Positions 29,590-32,871 of a stretch of DNA of 64,000 nucleotides are shown piece by piece. The notes below the pieces were generated by a model. That model was not told where the DNA came from. It saw only the letters and a program-made list of their open reading frames with translations, and did no database searches. A program made the translations under genes and the position numbers. Origin of the DNA: Escherichia coli (GTDB lineage Bacteria > Pseudomonadota > Gammaproteobacteria > Enterobacterales > Enterobacteriaceae); assembly GCF_022846255.1 (NCBI RefSeq), contig NZ_AP025682.1, one strand, 5' to 3'. Every line of letters starts with the position of its first letter. Within the stretch, counting starts at the first letter, position 1.

Positions 29590-30328
29590 TCTCCTCGCTT
29601 AACAAGGGCTGACGGAGGGTAATAATTGTCTATAGCTATCTTCTTAGCGATGTCTTTCTGGTATCACATTGGATCGGTGCAATTATTTTTCCTTTAATAC
29701 CCATTATGTTAAGAAATTCAGAACCAGCTGTAATCTCATTGTTTTTTTCATTCGTCTTGATCTTCCAAGGAATCTGACTGTGCATTATTGAGAACACACT
29801 AATAACGTGAATCGCTCCCTTGCGACGACTCTTGTCATAAGAGTACCGGAGCGTTTTTCCATCAATTGCAATGACGTCTTTATCATCTGAAGAATGGCAG
29901 TCAAGCATCCAGTTAATAAAGCACTCATGAAATTTTTCAGGACTGATACAGGATACAACTCTGGCAATGGTATCGTGAACAGGAATACCATTATCAAAAT
30001 CACCATATTGCTTCAAAAAATCGAGATGTGTTTCCCCAAAATCCTCTATATCTTCCCAGCCTTCTGCACCCGAAATAACGACACAAATAGTCAACAGTAG
30101 AATATCCGATAATTTATGCTCCACTTTCCAGGCTTGTCTGTAATCGGGGATAATAGAAATATGTTCCATCAATTTTTTAAGTTCCATTTTGTTCTCCTTA
30201 ATTATGTAAAGAGTATTTGATCATGTATAAGCAATAAAAAACAGCTTTAGGTAATGAGGAATATCTCAATTTTTAAACATAAAATGCGAATTATTTAGTA
30301 CAAAAAAGCAGCGTTACGTGATCTTTCC
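29590..30328 (-). mobile_element. truncated, diverged ISAs1-family (H-repeat) element copy
   Basis: 183-aa ORF (29636..30187) is similar but not identical to the N-terminal part of the H-repeat transposase at 31727..32554, then diverges; its 5' flank (about 30190..30328) repeats 32560..32695. Confidence 0.6.
29636..30187 (-). pseudogene. ISAs1-family transposase, truncated copy
   Basis: N-terminal about 150 aa align with the second copy, C-terminal tail diverges and terminates early. Confidence 0.65.
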
Positions 30329-30348
30329 ATGGAAAAGAGAGTAATACA

Positions 30349-30364
30349 CTGATTTTTAACGCAG
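30349..30364 (+). promoter_or_regulatory. candidate LexA (SOS) box upstream of the symE-like gene
   Basis: CTG-N10-CAG (ctgatttttaacgcag) with AT-rich spacer about 65 bp upstream of the ATG; deviates from CTGT/ACAG at two conserved positions; K-12 symE is SOS-regulated. Confidence 0.25.
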
Positions 30365-30427
30365 ATTGCCAGTGCTACCAACACTGACAATCTGCTCACC
30401 ACAAGCAACTAACAGAGGTAGTTAATC

Positions 30428-30747
30428 ATGGCTGAACACGATATTACGCCAGAAGTCGCCATTTCCAAAACACAGCGCCGCTATAAAGTCGGCTATGTCA
30501 GAGCCCGCCACATAAACAGCAAACCACGTACTACTCACGACACCCCAGCCTGAACCTTAAGGGCGACTGGCTGAAAGAGGCCGGATTTGATACCGGACGG
30601 GGTGTCACGGTGAAGATTTCGGAGGGGTGCCTGACCATCATCGCTGACAGTGACGAGGTGCAGGAACTGCGGGAGGAACTTTATCAGGTTAAACAGGTGG
30701 TTAAGGGGATGCGGAACGGGATGTTTAGTGTGCTGAACGAGAATTAA
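30428..30747 (+). pseudogene. symE-like type I toxin gene (AbrB-fold), apparently frameshifted
   Basis: 41 codons from ATG 30428 (MAEHDITPEVAISKTQRRYKVGYVRARHINSKP...) end at TGA about 30551; the SymE core LNLKGDWLKEAGFDTGRGVTVKISEGCLTII... continues in the -1 frame to TAA about 30745; restoring one C near 30550 would fuse them. Confidence 0.6.
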
Positions 30748-30797
30748 ATAATAAAAAAGCCGGGGAGATTTAAAATCTTCCCGGCTTTCTTTATCAT

Positions 30798-31100
30798 CTA
30801 AAAAGGTAATAATCCTCTAATAGGAGAAAATTTTGTAATATCAATACCTTGTAATTTAAAGTAATTAAAAGCATCTTCTATATTGGAAAACGCACTAATT
30901 TCTTCAGTTGCATAATCTTCGAACACTTCCATTTTATTTTCTGGTATTTTGAAAAAATAGGTATTGTATTTTTCATCCTGTTTTTTAATGGCATATTGGA
31001 AAAAATAACTTTCACCATTTATTTCCTTTATCTCATCAAAACCTCTAACCTTACCATTCTCTATAGCAACAATTAATTTTTCAATAGACAAATCAACCAT
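30798..31100 (-). CDS. putative immunity protein for the upstream toxin-like ORF
   Basis: 100-aa acidic, low-GC ORF; its ATG overlaps the stop of the upstream ORF (ATGgtTGA), the usual toxin-immunity arrangement; no sequence family recognised. Confidence 0.45.
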   Translation of the reverse strand: MVDLSIEKLIVAIENGKVRGFDEIKEINGESYFFQYAIKKQDEKYNTYFFKIPENKMEVFEDYATEEISAFSNIEDAFNYFKLQGIDITKFSPIRGLLPF

Positions 31101-31440
31101 CTATATCTATCCTCACCATTGTCCCATCAGAACGTTTAATATTTATATGAGGCAAAGAACCATGCCCTGTGCCTTTATGGTCATCATGACCATATACACG
31201 ACCAGTATTAGAATCAATAGGGTAATCTTTCCTATAACGGACAGTACCATCTCTTTTCTTAAATTGTTCCATCTTATGTTTTTTTCTAATACCGGCGGCA
31301 TCCTGCGAACTGATCCCTCTTACTTTTTGAGCATCAGGAAAGGCCTCCATCAATAAATCATGGGCTTCCTGTTTTGATTTAACTGTGACAACGGTTCCTT
31401 GAGGCCCCAGGGCAAGATTACGAAAGCCCGCTCCCCGCAA
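31093..31440 (-). CDS. putative orphan polymorphic-toxin C-terminal domain (3' fragment of an IS-disrupted gene)
   Basis: Track ORF begins inside the ISAs1 end with a TTG; first ATG gives [10 protein letters not shown]... (about 31350); C-terminal His-rich motif [21 protein letters not shown] is reminiscent of HNH/beta-beta-alpha-Me nuclease toxins; low GC. Confidence 0.4.
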
Positions 31441-32695
31441 GGACTGACGCCAGATAGTTTCTGTCCATGGCTGCTTTTCGCATCTTACGTCTTAACCCTG
31501 CCTTGAATACCTTATCATTCGTCAAAATATTAATAGCGATGTGCCGTATCCCTGAAAATAATTCTGCTGCATTTCCTCTTCTTATTTTGCAGTCGTCTTC
31601 ATTCATTACCACGTCCAGACGCCAGTGCAGCTTATTCTCCACGTGCCAGTGGTTTCGGATTGCTGTGGCGAACTTCTCTGCGGTTAAATCAGCAGAACTG
31701 ATATAATATCTGACCGTCATTTCTGGCTATTTCTTTTGTTCTGCTATTATGGACCGAAAGGAGACTGCCACGCATAATTTCTTCAGTCCTTTCCATTCAA
31801 ACGTGAAATCAATAAGTTCATCAGGGACATCGCAAACAATATGAAGACGGATTTCTTCTCTGCCGTGACTTTTTTCACTAATTGCGTAACTGTCATGCTC
31901 TGGATTATTCAATTCTTTCAGCGGAAATTTTTCCTCGAAGGCTTTATTTAGCCGCCCCTGGTTTCCTTTTACAGCGAATAAATAATCACCTCCCTGTTTT
32001 TGTATCTTCTCTGCAATATCTTTCTGGCAACCCATCGCATCAGTTGTGATGATTTTTCCTTTAATATCCAGCATGTTAAGAAGTTCAGGGATAGCTGTAA
32101 TTTCATTGGATTTCTCATCCGTCCTGATCTGTCCGATGACCAGACTGTGCATTGTTGAGAACGCACTAATGACATGAATCGCTCCCCTGCGGCGACTCTT
32201 GTCATAAGAATGTCGGAGCGTTTTTCCATCAATTGCAATAACGTCTTTATCATCTGAAGAATGGCAGTCACGCATCCAGTTAATAAAGCACTCGTGAAAT
32301 TTTGCAGGACTGATACAGGATACAACTCTGGCAATGGTATCGTGAACAGGAATACCATTTTCAAAATCACCATATTGCTTCAAAAAATCGAGATGTGTTT
32401 CCCCAAAACCCTCTATATCTTCCCAGCCTTCTGCACCAGAAATAACGGCACAAATAGTCAACAGTAGAATATCCGATAATTTATGTTCCACTTTCCAGGC
32501 TTGTCTGTAATCGGGGATAATAGAAATATGTTCCATCAATTTTTTAAGTACCATTTTGTTCTCCTTAATTATGTAAGGAGTATTTGATCATGTATAAGCA
32601 ATAAAAAACAGCTTCAGGTAATAAGGAATATCTCAATTTTTAAACATAAAATGCGAATTATTTAGTACAAAAAAGCAGCGTTACGTGATCTTTCC
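31400..32695 (-). mobile_element. ISAs1-family (H-repeat) insertion sequence
   Basis: Transposase reading frame of about 379 codons (31418..32554) with the [26 protein letters not shown]-terminal signature; upstream boundary set where the two copies' flanks diverge (after ...gtgatctttcc). Confidence 0.7.
31418..32554 (-). pseudogene. ISAs1-family transposase, split by a frameshift near 31720-31727
   Basis: 275-aa N-terminal ORF (31727..32554) and 100-aa C-terminal ORF (31418..31720) are contiguous in different frames. Confidence 0.7.
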
Positions 32696-32871
32696 CTGGT
32701 TATCGCTGTTCTTTCCCCTTGACCAGGCAAATATTTTTCATTATGGATCCATACCTTGCTATAATCAATTGTATTCTCAAAAATCGATCTGGCCAATGTT
32801 AATTCACCAGATGTCATTCTCCTTAATGACATATCCTTTCCCCTGGAAATAATATCTTTCAGATAAAACAC
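32662..32871 (-). pseudogene. 5' fragment of a gene truncated by the ISAs1 insertion; N-terminus resembles DUF4157-type domains
   Basis: 69-aa ORF whose last about 12 codons are encoded by IS-end sequence; motif LARSIFENTIDYSKVWIH resembles the E..fG.DfS.VRVH N-terminal signature of DUF4157 (a recollection, not verified). Confidence 0.35.

Follow-up and report, generated by a model that had tools for sequence, protein, structure and literature searches.

The symE-like locus at 30349..30747 of this Escherichia coli contig carries its conserved SymE core in a frame other than that of its own N-terminus, which raises the question of whether the gene is dead, misread or expressed in an unusual way, and of what controls it. 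All coordinates refer to the window, i.e. the whole stretch of 64,000 nucleotides analysed. The preliminary description of this DNA had offered inactivation, a sequencing error and expression through frameshifting as explanations, had ascribed the frame change to a single missing C, and had proposed a LexA box upstream and an antisense sRNA opposite the 5' end. The evidence collected here makes it very probable that the locus is a recently inactivated, Rhs/H-repeat-linked allele of a SymE-family type I toxin-antitoxin module, paralogous to K-12 symE-symR and related to iasE-IsrA (features in Table 1).

Table 1. Features of the symE-like locus and its immediate surroundings in the window
Feature	Position	Strand	Remarks
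Truncated ISAs1 (H-repeat) copy 1	29637..30332	-	N-terminal transposase fragment, ORF 29636..30187; end ...GATCTTTCCATGG
Candidate sense -10 TAATAC	30342..30347	+	placed by eye, inferred only; any -35 would be inside the IS end
CTG-N10-CAG motif CTGATTTTTAACGCAG	30349..30364		proposed LexA box; judged no LexA operator
SymR-like cis-antisense RNA gene	30358..30433	-	Rfam RF01809 symR; two-hairpin fold
SymR-like hairpin 2	30362..30396	-	GCAGATTGCCAGTG...CACTGACAATCTGC
Shine-Dalgarno AGAGG of the symE-like ORF	30414..30418	+	
symE-like 5' ORF fragment	30428..30553	+	codons 1-32 native, then 9 out-of-frame codons and TGA
Candidate SymR-like promoter, inside codons 5-14	30441..30468	-	placed by eye: -35 TTGGAA 30468..30463, 16-nt spacer, -10 TAATAT 30446..30441
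Frame-3 remainder of the symE-like gene (SymE/AbrB-fold core and C-terminal helices)	30487..30747	+	PF08845; without usable start codon
IsrA-like antisense segment, within the coding region and spanning the deletion site	30499..30617	-	Rfam RF01385
Deletion junction, 10 bp (AACCTACATG in the intact allele)	30522..30523	+	from alignment; 1-nt microhomology only
GC-rich hairpin with A-run and T-run flanks, likely bidirectional terminator	30756..30788		terminator scan: 15 pairs, 7 GC, then CTTTATC
Convergent ORF pair, 115 aa (31093..31440) and 100 aa (30798..31100)	30798..31440	-	
ISAs1 (H-repeat) copy 2, about 1.29 kb	31409..32699	-	terminal inverted repeats CCAGGG(A/C)AAGAT

The ATG ORF of the locus comprises 41 codons (MAEHDITPEVAISKTQRRYKVGYVRARHINSKPRTTHDTPA), beginning MAEHDITPEV and ending TPA before its stop. 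The SymE core is encoded in the +2 frame relative to this ORF (...TTYYSRHPSLNLKGDWLKEAGFDTGRGVTVKISEGCL...NEN and stop; ...TTYYSRHPSLNLKGDWLKEAGFDTGRGVTVKISEGCLTIIADSDEVQELREELYQVKQVVKGMRNGMFSVLNEN and stop) and ends at 30747. When an intact homologue was compared with the window by tblastn, the match was divided between two reading frames, one segment in each (E 7e-18 and 4e-49), and the frame-3 translation matched the Pfam SymE_toxin family PF08845 (E 1.6e-16, model positions 10-53 of 54), a domain also carried by 369 homologues. The product of the intact allele, WP_000807556.1, has 109 aa and carries the annotation 'SymE family type I addiction module toxin'. Both the two-frame structure and the membership in the SymE family that had been described beforehand are thus borne out. 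The SymE domain has no uninterrupted ORF with a start codon in the window, since the ATG ORF ends at 30553 and the ATG of Met35 is deleted. No other symE-like copy was found elsewhere in the window; the median of 4 places per genome in the E. coli search is due to the ISAs1 end and does not count paralogues.

Alignment to the intact allele identified the lesion. Within the gene, the sole difference between the window and the allele encoding WP_000807556.1 is a 10-bp deletion between 30522 and 30523, and the frame-3 remainder 3' of it is 100% identical to the intact sequence. Over a 571-nt region aligned with E. coli strain 104, the differences amount to the 10-bp gap and one substitution, the latter outside the gene. 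The deletion is judged recent because nothing else within the gene has changed. It removes 3 1/3 codons, including the ATG of Met35, and an internally initiated core protein is therefore also excluded. This differs from the single C thought to be missing near 30550. A loss from the CCCC run at 30543..30546 was rejected on the alignment and on the reading frame: the conserved TTYYSRHP is already read by frame 3 (30524..30549) upstream of the C-run, and the frame switch must therefore lie 5' of it. The frameshift itself, and inactivation as its consequence, stand.

The distribution of the deleted allele bears on whether the lesion is real. In a megablast search of 5,426 complete E. coli genomes, 81 cover the entire 571-nt region, and among the best matches listed all are 10 nt longer than the query. 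With a query spanning the junction, the deleted form was found in 0 of the 5,426 genomes, and the longer version in all 180 of the 180 genomes with a match. Five contigs encode precisely this truncated product of 41 aa, from an ENA metagenome, from Logan (DRR322657 and ERR2349758) and from NCBI (GCA_005387665.1); two of the five come from the same run, ERR2349758, and the window's own source genome may be included, so these represent at least two or three truly independent observations, not five. The deleted form is present in L035-L038, contigs from other datasets. Over 494-1139 nt, three of the deletion-bearing contigs show 100% identity to the window; a fourth aligned without gaps at 98.8% over 2.7 kb.

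These data weigh against the explanation that the organism's gene is intact and that the frameshift is a sequencing or assembly error, placed in the C-run by the preliminary description. In favor of that explanation, frameshifts in draft assemblies are often artefacts, and in two further family members (L013 and L015, one of them from a MAG) a single nucleotide is missing from an A-run. Here, however, the lesion is 10 bp in non-repetitive sequence and changes the length of no homopolymer, and the identical deleted allele occurs in contigs assembled separately from other datasets; a sequencing error is therefore very unlikely. The deletion is a genuine but rare lineage allele.

The third explanation, that programmed ribosomal frameshifting joins both frames into a functional SymE-like protein, draws on the overlap of the two frames at 30487..30553, where a -1 shift would join them. 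The overlap, read directly, contains no X XXY YYZ slippery heptamer, and no other sign of programmed frameshifting was seen. The joined product would be without residues 33-36, and where TYMTTYYSRH is conserved in the family its sequence would be scrambled. Single-frame alleles are moreover the norm (180 E. coli genomes, 369 homologues), intact alleles need no frameshifting, and a single recent deletion separates this allele from an intact one. Of the three explanations offered, this one is left with the least credence, lower still than a sequencing error.

Other members of the family are also out of frame. An Enterobacteriaceae isolate (L013:2501-2640) and an Erwinia MAG (L015:2501-2640) each lack one base of the same AAA run at codon 20 (TATAAAG), so that the SymE core is out of frame with the N-terminus in alignment A3, and L020 is frameshifted several times. 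These could be cases of recurrent toxin decay or homopolymer sequencing errors.

An Rfam scan run at an E-value threshold gave matches on the minus strand that indicate how the gene would be controlled. The Rfam symR model (RF01809) matches over its full length (model positions 1-77 of 77; E 3.6e-7) with 48.3 bits, below the gathering score of 61, which marks the match as a diverged relative and no formal member of RF01809. As in K-12, its 5' end (AGCCAUGAUU) falls within the ORF, here by 6 nt, and the predicted RNA is antisense to the AUG, Shine-Dalgarno sequence and 5' UTR of the symE-like mRNA. An 82-nt minus-strand RNA folds into two hairpins with a minimum free energy of -35.3 kcal/mol (z -5.4), the architecture of K-12 SymR (z -5.3). 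In the Erwinia MAG homologue both hairpins are kept (z -6.2) with a largely different hairpin-2 sequence, which amounts to compensatory change. The fold was judged from single-sequence predictions, as MAFFT misaligned hairpin 2 among four sequences and RNAalifold recovered it only partly.

The predicted antisense start is at 30433, and the candidate -10 lies at +14..+19 from the ATG, the position of TAGAAT in K-12. This candidate promoter agrees with the consensus at only 8 of 12 positions, under the 9-of-12 threshold of a promoter scan that called neither a sense nor an antisense promoter at the symE-like gene; the segment is nearly invariant across genera. On the sense strand, the candidate -10 aligns with TATATA in the LexA box/-10 region of K-12 symE and with GTAACT in L015. 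The transposase-proximal end of the first ISAs1 copy abuts the upstream region 95 nt before the ATG, and any native -35 region has therefore been replaced. The sense promoter is weak, and with ISAs1 sequence in place of its -35 region the expression of even an intact allele at this site may be poor.

Conservation across the family is consistent with an antisense gene embedded in the ORF. Among 11 loci from several genera (the comparison drew on window 30416..30500, L001, L004-L006, L009, L013, L015, L030 and L032-L034), mean pairwise identity is 0.85 at -12..-1, 0.95 at +1..+30 and 0.81 at +31..+72, against about 0.55 at +73..+150. Identity at third codon positions is 0.82 in the first 24 codons versus 0.58 afterwards. 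This pattern indicates a constraint at the nucleotide level, as would be expected if the 5' segment also encodes an antisense RNA. Conserved nucleotides upstream of SymE start codons, suggesting sRNA control, have been described before (Kawano et al. 2007, PMC1891008). In our comparison, many of the SymE-family loci have sequences unrelated to one another beyond about -25.

A second antisense similarity lies further inside the gene. The Rfam isrA model (RF01385), whose gathering score is 51, matches with 96.4 bits (E 3.4e-21) and a 10-nt gap in the alignment; the intact allele scores 118.8 bits, and most family loci also have an isrA match. On computational evidence, a cis-antisense sRNA of the symE-symR type is predicted to cover the ribosome-binding site and start codon, with its promoter in the ORF, and the antisense sRNA proposed earlier opposite the 5' end is well supported by the full-length symR match and the K-12-like hairpins. 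In K-12, the SymR promoter is embedded in symE, and SymR lowers translation more than the mRNA level (Kawano et al. 2007, PMC1891008).

A second 5' type was seen in six loci (L007, L011, L014, L016, L017 and L020; alignment A6), whose leader is homologous but rearranged (…GCTACCGCCACACCCTGATAA…TAATCAGCAGGTTAAATAC…). These loci no longer have an ATG where it is otherwise conserved, and the start would be elsewhere, e.g. at the Met35 equivalent in some copies.

The proposed LexA box was then weighed against this arrangement. The CTG-N10-CAG motif exists as described, 64-79 nt upstream of the ATG, and bare motifs of this kind occur 24 times in the window against 12.8 expected. Were the locus SOS-regulated, LexA bound here would repress the sense promoter as at K-12 symE. 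The motif is about correctly placed, just downstream of the candidate -10, and shares ACTGAT with the K-12 symE box TACTGATGATATATACAGGT; moreover, the title of Acuna et al. 2020 gives a Salmonella relative, STM0294.1n, the name iasE and describes it as SOS-induced. Scored with a position weight matrix, however, CACTGATTTTTAACGCAGAT reaches 4.8 bits versus 12.9-26.8 for 28 known E. coli LexA sites, of which the symE/yjiW site TACTGATGATATATACAGGT is the one verified in K-12 sequence. Nineteen 20-mers of the window outscore it, its heterology-like index is 17.3 versus at most 11.8 for the known sites, and a G precedes the CAG half-site at a position where A or C stands in nearly all of the listed sites. 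When the two loci are aligned pairwise, the K-12 box comes to lie at the IS junction, about 15 nt upstream of the motif.

The family and the RNA structure argue in the same direction. None of 19 family loci has a LexA site of at least 12.9 bits within 400 nt upstream, in contrast to K-12 symE, where a site of 18.7 bits lies at -95. The CAG itself (30362..30364) forms the base of SymR-like hairpin 2, in a stem GCAG...CTGC that reads GCGG...CCGC in L015; with the other arm compensating the change from CAG to CGG, these bases are conserved as RNA structure, not as a LexA half-site. No operator resembling TACTG(TA)5CAGTA was found at the promoter, where this motif, at 4.8 bits in the matrix of the 28 listed sites, is the best candidate. 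The LexA box was thus rejected on the matrix, the heterology-like index, the rank in the window and the 19 family loci, and SOS control of the locus is regarded as improbable. Of the earlier claim, the motif remains and the LexA role falls away.

Control by a SymR-like antisense RNA is the reading preferred here, and the locus stands close to known systems. To K-12 symE-symR it is tied by the SymE_toxin domain in a protein 42% identical over the core, by a predicted antisense RNA of about 77 nt whose start is only a few nucleotides into the ORF and which spans AUG, Shine-Dalgarno sequence and leader, by the two-hairpin fold and by the position of the antisense -10. It differs in location, lying in an Rhs/ISAs1 region near nhoA-yddH and not between mcrB and hsdS, in its scores (50.9 bits for the repaired protein against NCBIfam NF010128, the K-12 SymE equivalog, with a cut-off of 132, and the symR score under its own threshold), in having no credible LexA box, and in its broken ORF. 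Judged by the equivalog score, the core identity and the location, the window gene is to be classed as a paralogue, not an orthologue, of K-12 symE.

What the intact protein would do is inferred from K-12 SymE, the only member for which toxicity on over-expression, repression by an RNA and degradation by Lon are known (PMC1891008, PMC11894785). The label 'endonuclease-like' used in the preliminary description is dated for that protein: RefSeq now names it a nucleoid-associated protein, and, according to the summary in PMC11894785, Thompson et al. 2022 observed DNA binding and no RNase activity. K-12 SymE is now regarded as a nucleoid-condensing DNA-binding protein and not as an endoribonuclease (PMC11894785).

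The locus is tied to the Salmonella Typhimurium pair IsrA/STM0294.1n (iasE) by the RF01385 match, above the gathering score, on the antisense strand of its coding region, as in most family loci. IsrA was reported as an RNA of 423 nt, cis-antisense to STM0294.1n at the 5' end of that gene and inversely expressed with it (Padalon-Brauch et al. 2008, PMC2330248). The Rfam model covers 129 nt of the mapped 423 nt, so the ends of IsrA cannot be placed in the window, and the window deletion takes 10 nt from the IsrA-like segment. Partial similarity to Shigella flexneri Ssr1 (RF02627) was also seen on the antisense strand at 30458..31044 (-), with 113 bits, far under the gathering score of 820; what the two have in common is limited to the stretch that overlaps the symE-like gene. 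RF02627 also partly matches L009, L011 and L016, again antisense to the SymE-family gene and the region downstream of it, the scores ranging over 113-268 bits with the window included. Ssr1 was placed between an Rhs-family gene and a hypothetical gene, and SymE is not mentioned (Wang et al. 2016, PMC4782007); from the partial match and the Rhs neighbor, the Ssr1 locus probably overlaps a SymE-family module.

The genomic neighborhood links the gene to Rhs elements and H-repeats. ISAs1 sequences stand on both sides, as had been noted. The first copy corresponds to an ISAs1 family transposase pseudogene annotated at the syntenic E. coli loci; its transposase-proximal end, 30230..30332, is repeated at 32597..32699 (97%), and 29637..30328 is 92.7% identical to the ISAs1 copy of L035. 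In the second copy two ORFs, of 275 and 100 aa, share the broken transposase, whereas L035 has an intact 378-aa gene with DDE_Tnp_1 domains. Assignment to ISAs1/H-repeat follows from the syntenic RefSeq annotation, the DDE_Tnp_1 domains in L035 and the inverted repeats read in the window.

Downstream, the likely terminator hairpin separates the symE-like gene from the convergent ORF pair. The region of these ORFs is 99.7% identical to sequence of E. coli 104 and 2014C-3338 that adjoins the downstream side of an RHS core gene; in those strains the ORFs are preceded by this gene, a DcrB-like gene and vgrG. Pfam and NCBIfam searches with the 115-aa and 100-aa ORFs gave no matches; from their position alone, the two are interpreted as a C-terminal Rhs toxin tip and its immunity gene. 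The intact WP_000807556.1 locus has the same flanks (a GGDEF gene, the ISAs1 fragment and the 100-aa ORF). In the window, by comparison, 10 bp are missing from the gene, and the Rhs core, DcrB-like and VgrG genes are absent, the second ISAs1 copy standing in their place and separating the ORF pair from the Rhs core at a breakpoint at 31408/31409. Salmonella homologues are likewise convergent to Rhs genes, and RHS neighborhoods of SymE genes were noted by Kawano et al. 2007 (PMC1891008).

A mechanism can be proposed by homology with these systems. An intact allele would translate a 109-aa AbrB-fold protein, presumably toxic, from a leader of about 75 nt, and a small RNA read in the opposite direction from a promoter within codons 5-14 would be fully complementary to the start codon, Shine-Dalgarno sequence and leader and would block translation. 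In the window allele, the deletion after codon 32 shifts the frame and leaves only a 41-aa peptide without a SymE domain; with the ATG of Met35 also lost, the toxin half is dead. The antisense RNA gene, with its predicted promoter and two hairpins, is untouched, and the CTG-N10-CAG motif, judged not to be a LexA operator, overlaps the 3' end of this predicted RNA, its CAG forming the base of the second hairpin. The locus is of a known kind, an ordinary pseudogene of an annotated family with an antisense regulator of a known type left intact.

For annotation, this means a pseudogene through a 10-bp deletion, neither a frameshifting candidate nor an SOS gene, and a SymR-like/IsrA-like antisense RNA gene opposite the symE-like 5' end. 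The locus also offers a clean natural example of a type I module that has lost its toxin and retained its antitoxin RNA. In contrast to K-12 symE, no LexA box could be recognised at the Rhs-linked SymE paralogues examined, and this calls for caution in applying 'SOS-induced' to the whole family.

The orphan SymR-like RNA might act in trans and repress intact symE-like paralogues elsewhere in the same genome. Such action is conceivable because the antisense gene is untouched and the -12..+72 segment is almost invariant between paralogues and genera; we consider it unlikely, if somewhat less so than SOS control. If true, the Rhs-linked copies would form a cross-regulated network, not independent modules. 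The invariant 5' segment could also serve as a recombination joint that shuffles Rhs-orphan cassettes.

Further observations concern the window at large and other copies of the gene. The segment 24000..38000 of the window is at best about 97.8% identical over 14 kb to complete E. coli genomes, none of which reaches 99%. E. coli 2014C-3338 has a second SymE-family gene (L003:9419-9661), 5'-truncated and encoding 80 aa, whose upstream part is Rhs core sequence; as this copy lies downstream of another Rhs fragment, symE-like genes recur in Rhs orphan arrays. In ybgA-linked symE-like copies (L032:1479-1512, L034:1479-1512 and L009:2445-2478), a 34-nt fragment of the other ISAs1 end (CAGGGCAAGATTACGAAAGC.CGCTCCCCGCAAG), corresponding to window 31409..31442, is fused at -22 and replaces SymR-like hairpin 2. 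As the fusion junction has GCTC(C/A)CC(G/A)CAAG in common with the window leader, a short near-homology may have been the site of recombination. Beside symE-like 5' regions, ISAs1 ends are thus found repeatedly and in both orientations.
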